From: a virus
IMG/VR virus record: IMGVR_UViG_3300047160_006900
Span: 32,001-96,000 of that record
Direction: 5' to 3' (one strand)
DNA length: 64,000 bases
Below the pieces are notes generated by a model, which searched no databases, was not told the origin of the DNA, and saw nothing but the letters and a program-made list of their open reading frames with translations. Positions 1,017 to 11,789 of the stretch are shown here, piece after piece. The position numbers were made by a program, and so were the translations under genes. Numbering within the stretch: the first letter of the stretch is position 1; every line of letters starts with the position of its first letter.

Positions 1017-1301
1017 ATGGAACAACTATCGTTACCCCTCATTACGGAGCAGGCATCGTCGTACGAAATCGTGCTGCTGCGGAACGACATCCCCATCCTG
1101 ACCCTGCACGCCGATGCCCTCGCAGAGGCCCAGAGCAAGCGACGGGACCTAGTCGATCTGCTCCAACGTGACCCTCGGAACCGCACGGTCTGGGAGGACA
1201 ACCCCCGTCCGACCGGGTGGTGGGGCCTCAGGCCCACGCCGCCGCTTGCTGCTGCGGTGTACAACATCCGCATCGAGTCCGTCAGGATCGGAGCATCGTG
1301 A
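1017..1301 (+). CDS. Hypothetical protein with N-terminal QLSLPL motif
   Basis: ORF directly downstream of the promoter; begins MEQLSLPL. Confidence 0.6.
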   Translation: MEQLSLPLITEQASSYEIVLLRNDIPILTLHADALAEAQSKRRDLVDLLQRDPRNRTVWEDNPRPTGWWGLRPTPPLAAAVYNIRIESVRIGAS

Positions 1302-1304
1302 GTC

Positions 1305-1721
1305 ATGAGCCACACCGAGATCCACATCAACGAGCCGGGGGCTTCCATCGAGGAGCGGGTTGCGGCTCTGGAGAAGCAGGTCGAATTCCTGTCCAAGGAC
1401 CGTCCTGGCCGTAAGATGAAGCCCAACATCACGTCCCAGCCCGGGGTCTGCGGTATCGACCCGGCTCGGGACTCCTCGATCTGTCCCGACGCCAGCATCT
1501 ACCGGTACCAGAACGGCTGTCAGGGTGACAAGTGCGTCCAGATCAACCGGGACTACTACTCCGACTACCGGGCCAAGCGACGGCAGAACACCAAGCCGAC
1601 GGCGGAGGCCGTAGTGGAGGATCTTCCCGCCTCGGTCAGTAACGGGGAGGCCAGCCATGAGCCCCCGTCGATGACGCCGCCCCCGCCAGCGCCGTTCGGT
1701 CTCGACATCGACGCTTCGTAA
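1305..1721 (+). CDS. Hypothetical Cys-containing protein
   Basis: 138 aa ORF with a short coiled coil (IEERVAALEKQV) and a C...C...YQNGCQGDKC motif. Confidence 0.65.
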   Translation: MSHTEIHINEPGASIEERVAALEKQVEFLSKDRPGRKMKPNITSQPGVCGIDPARDSSICPDASIYRYQNGCQGDKCVQINRDYYSDYRAKRRQNTKPTAEAVVEDLPASVSNGEASHEPPSMTPPPPAPFGLDIDAS

Positions 1722-1722
1722 C

Positions 1723-1875
1723 GTGGATTTCAGCGGCCATACACCAGATCCTACGGAGTATGACATCTACGTGGCGTGGTATGAGAAGCTGGTAGTCGAC
1801 GCTCTCTGGAAAGAGCGATACGGTTACGATCTCGTCACCGGAGGTATCCGTGGAGCCGACATCGACGCAGCCTGA
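1723..1875 (+). CDS. Small hypothetical protein (50 aa)
   Basis: Hand translation MDFSGHTPDPTEYDIYVAWYEKLVVDALWKERYGYDLVTGGIRGADIDAA*; fills the gap. Confidence 0.5.
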   Translation: MDFSGHTPDPTEYDIYVAWYEKLVVDALWKERYGYDLVTGGIRGADIDAA

Positions 1876-2098
1876 CGATGACACCGAGACTCTTCTATTG
1901 ATCTTGGAGTGGATCACGGAGCAGCGGAAGACCGATCAAGAGCAGTGGGAGGCCATCCATCGCCTCAAGCGGGTTCTCCGGCGTGTGCTGGAGAGGGTTA
2001 AGACCCTAGAGGAGGAGGTAGCAGCGCTACAGCCACCCACACCGCATCCTGCGGTAGCGGGTACAGTCAACTTCGGCACACCAGTGAAGAGGAGTTAG
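1850..2098 (+). CDS. Coiled-coil protein with C-terminal beta-strand tail
   Basis: GGAGG RBS; heptad region LKRVLRRVLERVKTLEEEVAAL; ends AVAGTVNFGTPVKRS. Confidence 0.7.
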   Translation: MEPTSTQPDDDTETLLLILEWITEQRKTDQEQWEAIHRLKRVLRRVLERVKTLEEEVAALQPPTPHPAVAGTVNFGTPVKRS

Positions 2099-2102
2099 GG
2101 CA

Positions 2103-2429
2103 ATGGCAGACGCAGTACTCAAGGACGACGAGGTATTCCCGACCGTGACCCTGTCGTGGACAGACGACCAGGGCAGTCCCACCACCTCCCCGACCACCAT
2201 CGCCGCCTCATCGTCCGACGAGGCCACGGTGACGGTGACCGAGAACTCCGACGGCAGCGGCAGCTATGCCGTCTCCTCGGTCGGTCCCGTCTCGACCGCC
2301 GACGTGACGGTCTCCTGGCTCGGGACGAACGACGACGGCAGCACGGTGACGGTCTCGGCGTTGGTCGCCGTGGTCTCCAGCGAGGCCGTGGGCGGTTCGG
2401 TGAACTTCGGAGAGCCCATCAAGCGCTGA
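2103..2429 (+). CDS. Small Ig-like beta-sandwich protein
   Basis: GAGGAG RBS; Ser/Thr/Val-rich strands with an SSSDEATVTV motif; ends AVGGSVNFGEPIKR. Confidence 0.7.
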   Translation: MADAVLKDDEVFPTVTLSWTDDQGSPTTSPTTIAASSSDEATVTVTENSDGSGSYAVSSVGPVSTADVTVSWLGTNDDGSTVTVSALVAVVSSEAVGGSVNFGEPIKR

Positions 2430-2430
2430 G

Positions 2431-2459
2431 TTGCACTCCCCGCAGGAGGGGAGTACAAT
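2431..2459 (+). promoter_or_regulatory. SigA-type promoter TTGCAC-N17-TACAAT overlapped by an inverted repeat
   Basis: 17-nt spacer; TGCACTCCCC / GGGGAGTACA dyad spans both boxes. Confidence 0.65.
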
Positions 2460-2465
2460 GAAAGC

Positions 2466-2553
2466 ATTCCGGTTCCTGGGTTCCTGGATTGGTCTCTGTG
2501 TGCTAGGAGCCGGAGTAAAGAGCCCCTCGGTCCACCGATCGGGGGGCTTCTTT
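2466..2553 (+). ncRNA. Candidate ~88-nt small RNA (14-bp hairpin plus terminator)
   Basis: ATTCCGGTTCCTGG (2466-2479) pairs with CTAGGAGCCGGAGT (2503-2516) allowing GU pairs, and starts at the predicted +1. Confidence 0.45.
2517..2553. terminator. Intrinsic terminator, possibly bidirectional
   Basis: AAAGAGCCCC-TCGG-TCCA-CCGA-TC-GGGGGGCTTCTTT. Confidence 0.75.
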
Positions 2554-2586
2554 ATGCCATAGTGGCGGGAGGATTCGATTAAAGGA

Positions 2587-3171
2587 GTGGGTCCAATGCC
2601 CGAATCACATTACGAACCGGCTCCAGCACTACAAGATCCAGCCCCAGACCTACCCCCTGACCCCACTCCTCCTCCTCCTCCGGACCCAACTCCTCCTCCG
2701 GACCCTGCTCCCGAACCTCCCCCTCCGCCACCGGACCCAGCCCCAGAACCCGATCCGACTCCGCCTCCGGACCCTGCCCCAGCCCCAGAACCCCCTCCTG
2801 AGCCCGCCCCTGAGCCTCCTCCGGCCCCCTCTGGGGACGACTCCGGCGACGAGCCGAAGTACATCGAGCCGGTACGGGACGACGTGGTCGATGTTCCTGA
2901 GGCTCCCCCGGCTCCGCTCGTACCTCCGGGGGACTCGGGTGGAATCGCCCCTGAGGATCAGCCCAATCCGGAACTCCCGGAACTGGAGCCCCAAGAACCC
3001 ATCTACGAGGGCGAGGGCGTTCCGGCCGATGAGCAGCAGCAGCAATTGGCCGAGGATGAGGCTCAGTTCCAGGAGACGTACGACCAGCAGCGGGATGAGC
3101 ACGAACAGGCCTGGCAGGACGAGCAGGCCCAGATTCTGCAGGAGCGCGTGAAGCGGCTGGAGGGTCAGTAG
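2587..3171 (+). CDS. Proline/acidic-rich low-complexity protein
   Basis: AAGGAG RBS; DP[AT]P repeats followed by an acidic helical C-terminus. Confidence 0.7.
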   Translation: MGPMPESHYEPAPALQDPAPDLPPDPTPPPPPDPTPPPDPAPEPPPPPPDPAPEPDPTPPPDPAPAPEPPPEPAPEPPPAPSGDDSGDEPKYIEPVRDDVVDVPEAPPAPLVPPGDSGGIAPEDQPNPELPELEPQEPIYEGEGVPADEQQQQLAEDEAQFQETYDQQRDEHEQAWQDEQAQILQERVKRLEGQ

Positions 3172-3196
3172 ATCGGGTATGCCATAGTTATCGGTA

Positions 3197-4756
3197 ATGA
3201 CGATCTACGACGAGCCCCCCCTCTTTGAGGAAGAAGTCGAGGAGGAAGAGGAAGAAGAACTCCTCAATCCTGACGACGCCGCCTTCGTAGACGAACTGGT
3301 CAAGCGGATCATCCTCTTCTGCGAGGAGTTCTCCGGTTATGAACTGCGCCCCTACCAGCGGGAAATGGCCTACCGAATCGTGGAGTCTCTTGTCCTCTGC
3401 GACGGTGAGGAAGTCACTGCTCTCTGGGCACGCCAGAGTGGAAAGTCTGAAACCCTCTCCATCATCGTCGCCGGGTGCATGGTCATTCTGCCCAAGCTGG
3501 CAATGTCCTTCGACATTCTGGAGCGGTTCAAGCGGGGCATGTGGGTCGGGGTGTTTGCCCCCGTTGACAGCCAGTCCGATTTCCTTCACGGACGAATCGT
3601 TGACAAGCTGACCTCCGACCAGGCCCTGGAGTTCTTTGCCGATCCGGAACTGGACGAGGCGGTAGACGGGAAGTCCAAGGTCATTCGTCTCCGTAGTGGT
3701 TCTCTCTGTCGGCGGTCGACGGCAAACCCCCGGGCCAAGATCGAGGGGGCCTCGTATCACCTCGTCGTGATCGATGAGGCCCAGGACGCCGACGACACGG
3801 TGGTCCGCAAGTCCATTCACCCCATGCTGGCTGCCTACGCCGGGTCCATGGTGAAGATCGGGACCCCCTCGTTCGTCAAGGGCGACTTCTACCGGGCCAT
3901 CCAGTTGAACAAGCGACGCAGCACGAACCGCAAGGGTCGTCTCAATCACTTTGAATATGACCATAAAGTGATATCGAAGTACAACAAGTACTACGCCAAG
4001 TTCATCGGGCAGGAGAAGATCCGTCTCGGAGAAGACAGCGACGAGTATCAGATGTCATATTGCTTGAAGTGGCAGTTGGAACGAGGCATGCTCATCACCG
4101 AGGAGGATCTGGACTATCTCTCCGATTCCTCCATGCCGCTCGTCCGATCCTGGCATCGGACGCCCTGCGTAGTGGGGATCGACCCGGCCCGGGTCAAGGA
4201 CTCCACCGTGGTGACGGTGTGTTGGGTGGACTGGGATTATCCTGATCCGGCCGGATACCGGGAACACCGGATTCTCAACTGGCTGGAGATCCACAACACC
4301 GAGTGGGAAGAGCAGTACTTCCAGATCGTGGATTTCCTCGACAACTACAACCTGGCTTTCGTGGGGGTGGATGCCCAGGGCATGGGAGGACCGGTTGCTG
4401 ATCGTCTCAAGCGACTGCTGGAACACCGATGTGAGGTCGTCCCCCTCTCCTCCGACCTCAAGACCCAGGCCGATCGGTGGCAACACCTGATCGCTCTGCT
4501 GCAGCGGCGCATGATCGTGTATCCCGGCCACTCCAAGGCCAAGCGGACCCGGACCTGGAAACGATTCCGACAGCAGATGGAAGATGCGGAGAAGGTGATC
4601 AAGAACAACTACATGATCATCCAAGCCCCGCCGGATGAGCGTGGGACTCACGACGATTTCGTGGATTCACTGGCGATCGCCTGTGCCATGTCGATGCAGG
4701 ACACCGTGCCCTACGTGGAAACCTTTGAAGCTCCTTGGTATAGCGAGAGCCGATAG
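3197..4756 (+). CDS. terL: Terminase large subunit
   Basis: LRPYQ adenine-binding motif, Walker A ARQSGKS, Walker B VVIDEAQD, GTP coupling motif, nuclease GIDPA and HDDFVDS. Confidence 0.96.
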   Translation: MTIYDEPPLFEEEVEEEEEEELLNPDDAAFVDELVKRIILFCEEFSGYELRPYQREMAYRIVESLVLCDGEEVTALWARQSGKSETLSIIVAGCMVILPKLAMSFDILERFKRGMWVGVFAPVDSQSDFLHGRIVDKLTSDQALEFFADPELDEAVDGKSKVIRLRSGSLCRRSTANPRAKIEGASYHLVVIDEAQDADDTVVRKSIHPMLAAYAGSMVKIGTPSFVKGDFYRAIQLNKRRSTNRKGRLNHFEYDHKVISKYNKYYAKFIGQEKIRLGEDSDEYQMSYCLKWQLERGMLITEEDLDYLSDSSMPLVRSWHRTPCVVGIDPARVKDSTVVTVCWVDWDYPDPAGYREHRILNWLEIHNTEWEEQYFQIVDFLDNYNLAFVGVDAQGMGGPVADRLKRLLEHRCEVVPLSSDLKTQADRWQHLIALLQRRMIVYPGHSKAKRTRTWKRFRQQMEDAEKVIKNNYMIIQAPPDERGTHDDFVDSLAIACAMSMQDTVPYVETFEAPWYSESR

Positions 4757-4771
4757 CAGATCGGTACTGCT

Positions 4772-4990
4772 ATGCAGGCCAGCAGCACGGCGGCGCAGGA
4801 CTTTTTTCTGGTGCTGATCTCGGTGGGCATCTCAGCGTTCCTCAGTGCTGCGGTGTGGATACTGGTCAAGGTCACTCGCAACGACGTGCGGCTGGATGAG
4901 CACGGTACCCATCTGGACAATCATGAGCACCGCATCCATGACCTGGAGCACGATCACGATCAGCGTCATGATGACGACGACGAGGACTGA
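4772..4990 (+). CDS. Small membrane protein with His-rich coiled coil (holin/XhlA-like)
   Basis: One hydrophobic helix followed by LDEHGTHLDNHEHRIHDLEH. Confidence 0.6.
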   Translation: MQASSTAAQDFFLVLISVGISAFLSAAVWILVKVTRNDVRLDEHGTHLDNHEHRIHDLEHDHDQRHDDDDED

Positions 4991-7835: not shown

Positions 7836-9503
7836 GTGTCAATAAACTTTTATCCTCCCTCCTACCGGGCGGCGGCCAGTGACTTGACCGTCGCCATTAG
7901 CCCGTTGGGCTTGGTCGAACTCGCCGACGAAGAATTCGAAGTCCATGGACCTCGGCTGAACCGCTACGCCAGCAACTGGGCCTGGTACTTAGGTCACCAT
8001 TGGGCTTACCGGCGGGAGTTGGGCGAGGCCCAACTGACGTTCAACTACGTCAAGGCGTTTGCCGACTACATGGTCAACTTCACCTTTGGCAAGGGGGTGG
8101 AGTTCTCCTCTGCCGAGGCCACCCAGGGGATCATCCCCTACATCCTCAAGCGAGCCTGGGAGCACGACAATGACAAGCAGACTCTCCTCTGGGAGATTGG
8201 TCAGTTGGGGTCTGTCTCCGGCGACTGCTTCGCCAAAGTCACCTACGAAGAGCCTTTTGTGGACTCAGTGGGTCGCCCGCATCCCGGGAAGTTCCGGATT
8301 CTTCCCCTCAATCCGGCTTTCTGCTTCCCCGAATGGCATCCCCATGACCGTCAGCGGCTCATCCGGTTCAAGCTGAAGTACAAGTTTTGGGGTACGGCGG
8401 CGGACGGGGCTCGGCAGGTATTCACCTACACCGAGATCCTCACCGAGGACATGATCGAGGAGTACATCAACGACGAGCGCATCGACATGCGCCCCAACCC
8501 GATCGGGGAGATACCGATCGCTTACTCCCAGAACATCCCGGTGGCGTCGAGCCCGTGGGGTCTGGCCGATATCACCGACATCATCAGCCTGAATCGGGAG
8601 TTCAACGAGAAGGCGACCGACGTCGGGGACATCATCAACTACCACGGGGCTCCCGTCACGGTGATCATCGGGGCCAAGGCCTCCAACCTGGAGAAGGGGC
8701 CGAAGAAGGTCTGGACCATCGGGACCAAGGACGCCAAGATCCAGAATCTCACGATGGACACTGACTTCCAGGGCATCCTCGGCTACATGGAACTGATCAA
8801 GCAGTCCATGCATGAGATGACCGGGGTCCCGGCTCAGGCCTTGGGCCAGCAGCAGCCCATCTCCAATACCAGCGGGACTGCGCTGGCGGTTCAGTATCAG
8901 CCGCTGATGCTGAAGTACGGGCTGAAGAAGACCCAGTACTCCCGGCTGTTCAAGCGCATCAACGAACTGATCCTCATGCATGCGGTGATCAAGGAACCGG
9001 ATGCGCTGGTCTACAACCCGTACATCTCCTCGGTGCCGTTGCTGCCGGGGCAGTATCCGGAGTTGGACCCTGCCGATCCCATCACCTATCAGTCCACCGT
9101 CCACTGGCCGGAGCCGTTGCCGGTGGACGTGCTGATCAAGATCAACGAGATCCAGGCCCGTATGGCGATGGGGCTGGAATCCAAGCGTGGTGCTCTTCGT
9201 GATCTCGGGGAGATGTTCCCCGAACAGAAGATGAACGAGATCAACGAGGAGATGCTGGAGGACATGAAGGAGCAGGCGGCGCTGAACCTCGTCCAGGCTC
9301 AGGCGGCGCAGTTCATCATCGGAGCCACGGGGATGTTGCCCGATGGCCAGCCGTTGATTCTCCCCGGTCAGGCCGGTCCTCCGGATGAAGAGGGCAATCC
9401 CACCGGTCCTGCTCCCGCCGTCGATCCCGTTTTGGCCCAGGAAATCATCCAACGGGCATATGCGGAAGTTCCGGCGGAGCGGGAATCGTTCGACAAGCAA
9501 TAG
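7836..9503 (+). CDS. Portal protein
   Basis: 555 aa helical protein with TFNYVKAF, GSVSGD, NPIGEIPI and SNTSGTAL portal-type motifs; located before the scaffold and capsid. Confidence 0.92.
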   Translation: MSINFYPPSYRAAASDLTVAISPLGLVELADEEFEVHGPRLNRYASNWAWYLGHHWAYRRELGEAQLTFNYVKAFADYMVNFTFGKGVEFSSAEATQGIIPYILKRAWEHDNDKQTLLWEIGQLGSVSGDCFAKVTYEEPFVDSVGRPHPGKFRILPLNPAFCFPEWHPHDRQRLIRFKLKYKFWGTAADGARQVFTYTEILTEDMIEEYINDERIDMRPNPIGEIPIAYSQNIPVASSPWGLADITDIISLNREFNEKATDVGDIINYHGAPVTVIIGAKASNLEKGPKKVWTIGTKDAKIQNLTMDTDFQGILGYMELIKQSMHEMTGVPAQALGQQQPISNTSGTALAVQYQPLMLKYGLKKTQYSRLFKRINELILMHAVIKEPDALVYNPYISSVPLLPGQYPELDPADPITYQSTVHWPEPLPVDVLIKINEIQARMAMGLESKRGALRDLGEMFPEQKMNEINEEMLEDMKEQAALNLVQAQAAQFIIGATGMLPDGQPLILPGQAGPPDEEGNPTGPAPAVDPVLAQEIIQRAYAEVPAERESFDKQ

Positions 9504-10466: not shown

Positions 10467-11789
10467 ATGGCGTTCCAACTGCCCACGGGGTCAAACGTCA
10501 CGGGTACGAACCGTGTGGCCGGTGGTCTGACCGGTTCTGCGTACAGTGCCCCTGCCGGATATGACCTCACCGGTTCCGGAGCCAACATCGTCGGCGGTTA
10601 CGGTGCTGGCCTGACATCTGGGACGAGCCTGCTCGGTCCCGCCATCCAGACCGTCTGGTCGAAGGAGATTCTCTTCCAGGCGATGCCCGTGCTCCGTTTT
10701 GAGCAGTTCGCCGTGAAGAAGACCGAACTGGGAGTCATGCCCGGTTTGACCGTCAACTTCATGCGCTACAACAACCTGCCCATCCCATCAGGTCCCCTGG
10801 TGGAAGGCATTCGCATGAAGACCTACGGGATCACGGCGCAGCAGTACCGGATCACCGTGGCCGAGCACGGCTTCGCCATCGCCGTCTCGGAACTGCTGCT
10901 CAACGCCTCCTTCGATGACGTGATGGCCTCGGCCTCCCGTCTCCTGGGCCGCAACATGGCGCTGTACATGGACACCCAAGCTCGGGAGACCATCCAGTCA
11001 GCGACCTCCATCGTGTACGGGTACTCCCCGCCCACGGACCTCACCACCGGCTACGGCATCTACTCCAGAGGAACCCAGGCCACCTCCGGCACGATCGGCA
11101 ACGGCGGGTTCAACCTCACTCCAGCGGCGGTCAAGGACAGCGTCTTGGAGTTGTCCTCCAAGAACATCCCCAGGCTGGGGGAGACGTACGTCTGCTTCAT
11201 CCATCCGGCGCAGTCACGGCAGCTTCGTGACACCCCGGAGTTCATCGAAGTGAGCAAGTACGCCGCTCCGGGGAACTTCATGCTGGGGGAGATCGGGCGT
11301 CTCTTCGACGTGGTGTTTATCGAGACCACCCAGGTGGGCCGTCCGCTGACCACCCCGGCCAACTTCATCAACCAGGCGTACGACACTGGTGGGGCGGTGG
11401 CCTGGCGTGGTGTGGACTCCGAGACCAACCCGCTGGCTGGGGCCACTGGGTCGATGGGGTCCACCGGACCGAACACGCTGGCGGCGGGTCCTCCGACCCT
11501 CTCCGGCAACACGGGGGTGCAGGTCACCACGGCGGAGCCCGACGCCACGGCGACCCCGGGCTGGGACCAGCACTGGCCGTCGGACTTCACCGTGGTTCCG
11601 GACACGGAGCAGTTCGAAGCCCTCATGCTGGGCGACAACGCCTTCGGCCACGCCATCTCCCTCCCGGTGGAACTCCGGGACGGCGGCGTGCTCGACTTCG
11701 GTCGTGAGCACGCCCTGGCGTGGTACAGCATCTGGGGCTTCGGTCTGATCACCGACTCCGCCGTGGTGAAAATCCGTACCAACGGCTGA
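10467..11789 (+). CDS. Major capsid protein (N4 gp56-like HK97 fold)
   Basis: AGGAGG RBS, strong codon bias, motifs FIHPAQ, GEIGRLFDVVFIET and DFGREHALAWY. Confidence 0.93.
   Translation: MAFQLPTGSNVTGTNRVAGGLTGSAYSAPAGYDLTGSGANIVGGYGAGLTSGTSLLGPAIQTVWSKEILFQAMPVLRFEQFAVKKTELGVMPGLTVNFMRYNNLPIPSGPLVEGIRMKTYGITAQQYRITVAEHGFAIAVSELLLNASFDDVMASASRLLGRNMALYMDTQARETIQSATSIVYGYSPPTDLTTGYGIYSRGTQATSGTIGNGGFNLTPAAVKDSVLELSSKNIPRLGETYVCFIHPAQSRQLRDTPEFIEVSKYAAPGNFMLGEIGRLFDVVFIETTQVGRPLTTPANFINQAYDTGGAVAWRGVDSETNPLAGATGSMGSTGPNTLAAGPPTLSGNTGVQVTTAEPDATATPGWDQHWPSDFTVVPDTEQFEALMLGDNAFGHAISLPVELRDGGVLDFGREHALAWYSIWGFGLITDSAVVKIRTNG

Follow-up and report, generated by a model that had tools for sequence, protein, structure and literature searches.

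Why should two neighbouring viral genes, whose products are otherwise unrelated, end in the same short peptide? The question is raised by a pair of small genes in the window, by which we mean the whole 64,000-nucleotide stretch analysed here. This stretch covers bases 32001-96000 of an IMG/VR virus record that is 117,405 bp long and has direct terminal repeats. The upstream gene encodes a helical protein that we call the carrier, and the downstream gene, 4 nucleotides (nt) away, encodes an immunoglobulin (Ig)-like protein; the carrier ends in AVAGTVNFGTPVKRS and the Ig protein in AVGGSVNFGEPIKR, each immediately before its stop codon. The answer we favour, with moderate confidence, is that the two genes encode two halves of one protein, in which the helical carrier would clip the Ig protein by C-terminal strand donation to form a probable virion-surface module. 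Support for the parts of this reading decreases from strand donation by the carrier, through the window pair as the split form of a one-chain protein, to the Ig tail as a second donor and finally a role on the virion.

The likeness of the two proteins is confined to their ends, as an earlier reading of the sequence (the original prediction) had noticed. Compared by BLASTP, they match at their C-termini only (13 of 25 identities, E 8e-07), with 10 of the last 14 residues identical, and six-frame motif scans of the 64-kb window and of the whole 117,405-bp genome find the shared peptide at these two places alone. That the similarity lies at the protein level, with differing codons, was also correctly seen: 16 of the 42 bases in the 14 shared codons differ, 10 of them at third positions, and 6 of the 10 identical residues are encoded by different codons. 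When 16 base changes were placed at random, at least 10 identical residues were kept in a fraction of only 0.00012 of 200,000 trials. This argues that both copies are under selection on the peptide and are not a recent DNA repeat; as judged from the codons, both tails are under purifying selection.

These numbers bear on a simple alternative, that the shared tail is a remnant left when the 3′ end of an Ig gene was partly duplicated or recombined, with no function in the carrier. The carrier tail is of the Ig-tail type, including an Ala-Val-x-Gly lead-in, and is unlike the usual donor strand of upstream proteins in related loci, which suggests that it probably descended from the end of an Ig gene; tandem Ig genes also occur among relatives. 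However, the conservation of the peptide through the base differences given above points to long divergence under selection, and a second, unrelated carrier family (described below) retains a tail like that of its own Ig protein. We therefore regard a functionless relic as very improbable.

The original prediction described the first protein as a coiled coil followed by a Pro linker, and the second as Ig-like. The linker is present, at carrier residues 61-67; the coiled coil is putative, the evidence for it being a sub-threshold SlyX match over residues 22-63 and a reading of the sequence. The Ig-like character of the second protein was borne out. Its matches to the Pfam families Invasin_D3 (17.2 bits, cut-off 33) and FlgD_ig are weak and below the cut-offs; among 13 members of its family, 5 match Invasin_D3 and 4 match Big_2 at E <= 0.1, and of P0093, P0040, P0016 and P0009 only P0093 clears the Big_2 cut-off (26.9 vs 22.8). 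Modelled without an alignment, the window Ig protein gave a poor fold (predicted local distance difference test, pLDDT, 47.5). An AlphaFold2 model of a related protein (L023:5845-6309, from a 117-row alignment) has a mean pLDDT of 85.5, with strands at 52-138, and superposes on solved Big_2-type domains, including the C-terminal domain of the lambda tail tube protein gpV, SbsC, Lig and a phage fibre Ig. Specifically, VIA gives this model Z scores of 11.0 to the fibre Ig of phage SU10 (root-mean-square deviation, rmsd, 1.7, 75 aligned), 10.9 to SbsC, and 10.2 to the gpV domain (7T4F; rmsd 2.4 over 79 residues) or 8.6 in another structure of it (2L04); the gpV domain is also the best PDB match by Foldseek (E 1.4e-4). 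Unlike the window Ig protein, the gpV domain is covalently joined to the tube protein, and 13 of the 91 residues of 2L04, at the N-terminus, have no counterpart in the ordered part of the model.

Where these matches begin and end suggests a shift of register. The Invasin_D3 profile, 98 positions long, is matched to its position 93 already at Ig residue 84, and wherever Big_2, Big_1 or Invasin_D3 profiles align, the first Ig residue extrapolates to position 6-11. At the other end, the Pfam Ig profiles stop at least 15 residues before the C-terminus of the protein. The structural matches to the L023 model tell the same story: they cover residues 50-144, ending 11-17 residues before its C-terminus, and 13-18 N-terminal residues of the solved gpV and Lig domains have no match in it. 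The profile coordinates and structural limits together make the family look like a Big_2 domain minus its first strand, plus one extra strand at the end. Thus, by alignment, members seem to start about one β-strand late and to end in a conserved extra strand. In tandem arrays of Big_2 or Lig repeats, the last strand of one domain leads into the first strand of the next, which ends in Pro; on this background and an alignment with LigA, we take the extra strand to resemble such a first strand.

A domain of this kind might accept a first strand from elsewhere, and the carrier tail is predicted to supply it. Complex prediction, a check suggested with the original prediction, was made by a single method for the carrier and the Ig protein, the latter with a 62-row alignment made for this analysis. 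It placed the carrier tail on the Ig domain with interaction prediction scores from aligned errors (ipSAE) of 0.64, 0.61 and 0.65, against 0.00 for the best control. At least 95% of the contacts agree between runs, and the pLDDT of the partner is at least 76. In calibration, 58 of 80 solved complexes reach the mark, as do 2 of 110 mismatched pairs, a yardstick only roughly valid with a custom alignment. The predicted interface involves carrier residues 65-81 only, with Ig residues 3-30, 57-59 and alternate residues of 70-86, which we read as inward-facing core residues of the opposite sheet. The best contacts obey i + j ~90, with carrier residues 70-79 antiparallel to Ig residues 20-11; in this prediction, the donor docks as a β-strand at the edge of the Ig domain. 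The model thus supports binding between carrier and Ig protein. In the mechanism we propose, the carrier strand would dock antiparallel on the first long Ig strand, contacting the alternate core residues, and the helical carrier would hold the Ig domain through this inter-chain strand donation. Such antiparallel docking would form a hairpin in a fused protein, and the two window genes would then be cut within the hairpin loop.

Fused proteins of this design exist in related loci. The upstream regions of 79 loci (drawn from 80 related loci and the window, after dropping those whose Ig start lies within 150 nt of the locus end) were scanned in three frames. In 18 of them, where 1.1 are expected, the 45 residues preceding the Ig domain contain a strict hydrophobic-x-hydrophobic-Gly-Pro-hydrophobic motif; it lies in frame without a stop in 10 loci (fused) and on a separate open reading frame (ORF) in 8. 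A looser C-terminal donor motif is found in 12 of the 82 ORFs immediately upstream, compared with 23 of 8736 background ORFs. In 12 two-gene loci the stop at the junction is TAA (6), TAG (5) or TGA (1), followed by a gap of 1-69 nt before the Ig start codon, and several of the gaps contain a visible AGGAG-like ribosome-binding site. Real stops and ribosome-binding sites at the junctions indicate that these are true split genes. Classified by first-start ORFs, 81 loci comprise 55 fused, 20 with a separate adjacent ORF and 6 with neither, although the fused class may be overcounted because first starts over-extend. The N-terminal parts are mutually unrelated: there are coiled coils and some hydrophobic helices, as well as amphipathic helices that often lead into Cys and basic residues; in many related loci a Pro/Lys-rich stretch precedes the donor strand. 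By this comparison of sequences, most relatives are shown to encode helix, linker, strand, Ig domain and tail as one chain, with the window pair as the split form. The original proposal that a terminal strand is donated to the next subunit is supported for the carrier-Ig heteromer, by the predicted docking and by upstream donor strands that recur, fused or separate; this does not extend to the polymer that it also envisaged.

Several features of the upstream parts deserve mention in their own right. Many N-terminal parts (L086-L089, L105, P0097, P0100 and P0101) consist of an amphipathic helix followed by a Cys cluster and a basic patch, which might serve as a metal site, a disulfide or a membrane contact. 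The L098-L164 subfamily (for example, L161:2878-3306) has an N-terminal extension with two or three strand-like segments and a conserved Gly-Asp before the Ig Met; it may add more than one strand to the sandwich, so the anatomy of the upstream part varies. Fused forms (for example, L023:5845-6309, L062:736-1179 and L037:5854-6420) retain a Met where stand-alone Ig proteins begin, and it is conceivable that an internal start there also gives a short Ig form. Membrane anchoring was rejected as a general rule: a strongly hydrophobic 19-residue window is present in 12 of 75 N-terminal parts, compared with 122 of 803 background ORFs.

We also considered fusion of the two window proteins by read-through or frameshifting, which seems improbable. 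A TGA interrupts the Ig frame 18 nt ahead of the ATG and no slippery site is evident, and the other split loci mostly stop at TAA, which leaves read-through of the window pair unsupported. Past its TAG stop, the carrier frame stays open across the Ig gene as a 101-amino-acid (aa), Arg-rich ORF at 2156-2461; this overlap in another frame we take to be a shadow frame of high-G+C DNA and not a gene.

The fused loci and the docking also bear on the idea that both tails are independent docking tags that fit some third protein, perhaps a socket on the capsid, neck or tail of the virion, with the two proteins serving as alternative or neighbouring decorations. One peptide on two otherwise unrelated proteins does have the look of a shared address tag, the gene pair adjoins the head-gene module, and Ig-like decoration proteins with a separate anchoring part are known, such as pb10 of phage T5. 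However, the carrier tail is predicted to dock directly on the Ig domain with a score that the controls do not approach, and in 10 related loci the strand is internal, right before the Ig domain, where it is unsuited to be a C-terminal tag. The family profile finds no second acceptor-like Ig copy in the genome either. We judge the docking-tag explanation improbable.

If the carrier instead donates its strand to the Ig protein, as we prefer, it remains to ask how the donor relates to the Ig protein's own tail across loci. In L065/L066, L077, L083 and L071, a 127-132-aa helical upstream protein, unrelated to the window carrier, has an end resembling the tail of its own Ig protein, so the co-occurrence of shared tails, which the original prediction expected of homologous pairs, appears in a second, unrelated set. 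Compared within a locus, the two tails score 54 in the window, 41 in L077 and 33 in L065/L066; in 8020 between-locus comparisons, no score exceeds 36 and the 99.9th percentile is 27. When loci were collapsed at 60% Ig identity, 19 remained, and in these the donor strand has a mean score of 16.4 against the tail of its own Ig protein and 13.1 against the tails of other loci (permutation p 0.00085).

Which known joint does this most resemble? Donor-strand complementation builds chaperone-usher pili, where an incomplete Ig-like subunit is completed by a strand of another chain. What these subunits lack is the last (G) strand, which an N-terminal extension supplies, and their assembly depends on a periplasmic chaperone and an usher. 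The window pair has the reverse polarity, with a C-terminal donor and the first strand in question, and both of its proteins are without a signal peptide, with no lipobox seen in their sequences. For these reasons, we do not consider them chaperone-usher subunits; no chaperone or usher is present among 30 annotated large neighbours of the family, where no directed search for either was made. The analogy drawn in the original prediction is thus wrong in detail, and two other systems are closer.

The first is the type V pili of Bacteroidia (FimA, Mfa1), which exchange strands through C-terminal donor strands (PMC13655056). The C-terminal donor takes the place of the acceptor's N-terminal strand and an anchor subunit sits at the chain end, as we propose here; type V pilins are exported lipoproteins with two transthyretin-like domains and a slot opened by a protease. 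The window Ig protein differs in being a single Big_2-like domain of ~105 aa whose first strand is apparently absent genetically, with no protease implied. With one such domain and neither lipobox nor signal peptide, the window proteins were rejected as type V pilins, sharing only the C-terminal polarity of the donor. The second is the baseplate of phage Tuc2009, in which a solved structure shows the C-terminal β-hairpin of BppU completing the β-sandwich of BppA domain 2 (PMC4742702). The likeness is close: a C-terminal extension completes a small sandwich on a second, separately encoded phage protein, giving a composite, titin-like Ig fold. In contrast to this solved two-strand hairpin in a baseplate, the window has a predicted single strand on a small helical protein. 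The window acceptor also bears a donor-like tail of its own and belongs to a stand-alone small family spread across many unrelated phages.

What, then, does the Ig protein's own tail do? In our mechanism, this nearly identical tail would stay free and could plug another acceptor of the same kind, giving a dimer or a chain. The original prediction went further: the Ig protein would polymerise head to tail into an open filament, with the carrier filling the first slot as initiator or anchor. Since the carrier tail that is predicted to dock hardly differs from the Ig tail, the latter should fit the slot of another copy; moreover, it is located past the canonical last strand, in keeping with the likeness, noted above, to the Pro-ended first strand of tandem Big_2 arrays. 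Related loci L061:6001-6641 and L050:6001-6641 each have two Ig-sized ORFs in tandem, 8 nt apart. The second copy in L061 matches the family profile and shares an unusual tail ending with the first, whereas the second ORF of L050 comes from the gene map alone; the pairs are candidates for a natural two-subunit chain. Type V pili offer a precedent for polymerisation through C-terminal donor strands that replace an N-terminal one (PMC13655056). Set against this, the tail is confident but unpaired in the monomer model of a relative and may pack in cis, and in fused relatives the slot would be filled in cis, which would leave the tail partnerless unless a shorter Ig product is also made. In addition, nothing sets the length of the filament, and the family profile finds a single Ig copy in the genome. 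A head-to-tail filament is plausible, but we would call it doubtful.

A broader version of the same thought is that the family is a widespread plug-and-socket system, with small Ig subunits one strand out of register (lacking their own first strand and ending in that of the following domain) that chain non-covalently onto interchangeable anchors, these being coiled coils or amphipathic or hydrophobic helices. We put this forward tentatively, as a reading that is less likely than not. If true, it would provide tandem-Ig fibres on virions or infected cells without a long gene, a chaperone or a protease, and its clearest example would be the window pair, where anchor and subunit bear identical donor peptides.

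Where the complex of carrier and Ig protein would act is suggested by its layout and by frequent portal and terminase neighbours; we picture it on the virion surface, as a decoration or whisker like pb10 or Hoc. In T5 pb10, a helical capsid-binding domain, a poly-Pro linker and a solvent-exposed Ig-like domain form one chain of 164 aa (PMC5292684), encoded by T5.151 between the portal and protease genes. The window pair shares this layout and size; its fused relatives have ~146-190 aa, and the fused L023 gene follows a lambda-type portal gene, a position comparable to that in T5. Unlike the window pair, pb10 is one chain without a donor-strand tail, and capsid binding by the window pair would be by analogy only. 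The sequences are unrelated: when the family alignment was compared with T5.151 by hhalign, the probability was 0.5% over 6 columns in the Pro linker. From this analysis, a role on the virion is probable.

Several observations weigh against the reading we prefer, and they touch each of its parts. First, the co-variation of the tails, which the original prediction had proposed to check in other phages and which is positive over the 19 loci, is weak without the window (14.4 vs 12.8, p 0.018), and there is no effect in 7 of the 19. The donor strand is mostly of a Gly-Pro-Val type and the Ig tail of a Gly-x-Pro-Glu type; because the two types differ in most loci, identical tails are the exception. 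For the carrier itself, a search of 5.8 billion proteins found no relative but its own copy, so the window pair contributes no co-variation evidence of its own. Second, the docking score comes from one method, and docking at an edge strand is an easy solution for a predictor; strand complementation of the Ig type is common among solved structures, and the score may partly reflect this likeness. The AlphaFold2 model of the fused L023 protein leaves the upstream strand undocked in cis (pLDDT ~55), and its C-terminal tail, with a pLDDT of ~90, has no β ladder by DSSP. Third, the 30 large neighbours were selected by size, a choice favouring portal and terminase, and comprise 5 portal, 5 large terminase (one weak), 5 DNA metabolism, 2 tail, 2 lysis, 2 other and 9 unmatched proteins. 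BLAST clustering of the ORFs in 81 loci (80 related loci and the first 12 kb of the window) found no recurrent neighbour family, the largest being present in 6 loci. Such diverse neighbourhoods, including DNA-metabolism and lysis genes, weaken the case for a virion role.

The features of the locus are collected in Table 1.

Table 1. Features of the carrier-Ig locus, in window coordinates (+, strand shown)
Feature	Position	Strand	Remarks
Carrier gene; 82-aa helical product with an acidic N-terminus, then a long helix, Pro linker and putative donor strand	1850-2098	+	GTG start; GGAGG at 1840-1844, 5 nt upstream
Pro-rich linker QPPTPHP, carrier residues 61-67	2030-2050	+	Read from the translation
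Putative donor-strand tail of carrier, residues 68-82	2051-2095	+	Shared peptide; predicted interface
Gene for 108-aa Big_2-like Ig protein	2103-2429	+	ATG start; GAGGAG at 2089-2094, 8 nt upstream
Predicted acceptor strand of Ig domain, residues 11-20	2133-2162	+	Lowest-error contacts in complex prediction
Ig protein's own C-terminal strand tail, residues 95-108, past the canonical domain end	2385-2426	+	Invasin_D3 profile, family alignment and structural matches
Terminator-like element: 13-bp G+C-rich hairpin, then T-rich run	2520-2549	+	RNA fold

The window has a G+C content of ~62% and its long ORFs lie nearly all on the plus strand. The gene pair sits just 5′ of a head module, with the start of the large terminase gene 768 nt downstream of the pair. 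This terminase (3197-4756) has 45-46% identity to those of Streptomyces phages BRock and LuckySocke, and 3′ of it are a portal gene (7836-9503) and then a major head gene (10467-11789). RNA folding of 2425-2590 gave -79.9 kcal/mol (z -4.38), and the terminator-like hairpin lies within this region; a simple terminator scan of the window does not list that hairpin among its terminators. The strongly folded spacer and the hairpin after the Ig gene suggest that the carrier-Ig pair closes a transcription unit of small unknown genes. The spacer itself (2431-2586) contains three hairpins; one has a large loop on a 14-bp stem, and another is the 13-bp terminator-like hairpin. Between it and the large terminase lies a 194-aa ORF (2587-3171), immediately 5′ of the terminase gene, whose N-terminal half is nearly pure Pro-rich repeat and whose C-terminal half is acidic and Gln-rich; it faintly resembles the small terminase of Sf6 (E 0.054) and may be an unusual protein of that kind.

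Judged by sequence searches, the Ig protein is one of a large family of Big_2-like domains that is confined to viruses and has no name. At E <= 0.001, an exhaustive phmmer search gave 18 relatives, and a profile built from 13 of these found 203 proteins; the long multi-repeat proteins on the phmmer list (P0005-P0007) turned out not to be true relatives. Scans of IMG/VR with two subfamily alignments confirmed 266 and 213 relatives, sets that overlap, and the nearest Atlas clusters to the Ig protein are 93-100% viral and without names. In PHROGs, 1 of 13 family members matched one family (E 0.00013). Other searches came back empty. Among 50,697 phage records, neither megablast with positions 1300-4800 nor tblastn with the Ig protein found a match; pattern scans based on the Ig protein or on P0004 confirmed no relative in IMG/VR; and a 3-row alignment scanned against metagenomes had 597 pattern matches, not one of which was confirmed. 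The sole family match in named phages is ORF216 of Ralstonia phage RP13 (locus L004, record 143884-144231; 38% identity to P0040, E 1e-3), which lies among small hypothetical genes and tRNAs and, being in a cultured phage, is the handiest experimental entry point. Members have ~102-112 aa, or 146-230 aa when N-terminally extended. Nearly all end alike after the last long strand, with Ala-Val or Ala-Ser, alternating hydrophobics, Gly, Pro and a final Lys, Arg or Gln, and of the 9 columns that hardly vary across the 117-row family alignment, 2 fall in this C-terminal tail.

Strand donation between separately encoded phage proteins is already known, with BppU-BppA of Tuc2009 as the precedent. In the strand-donation literature, judged by listings and abstracts, we did not find such a joint described for a small phage Ig protein. 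What is new here is that such a joint lies at the centre of a very large unnamed family, that unrelated phages have it in fused and in split form, that the anchors are interchangeable, and that the acceptor itself ends in a donor. If our reading is true, it would offer a first way into a very large family of phage proteins now called 'hypothetical' (at least 203 clusters in the protein search) and a phage example of β-strand donation with the polarity of type V pili. The same joint, fused or split across unrelated phages, would be a natural experiment in protein fragmentation, and the 14-residue peptide, by clipping proteins onto an Ig domain of 90 residues, could serve as a convenient self-assembling tag. 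If these proteins are virion decorations, the finding would also bear on how phages display adhesive Ig domains.

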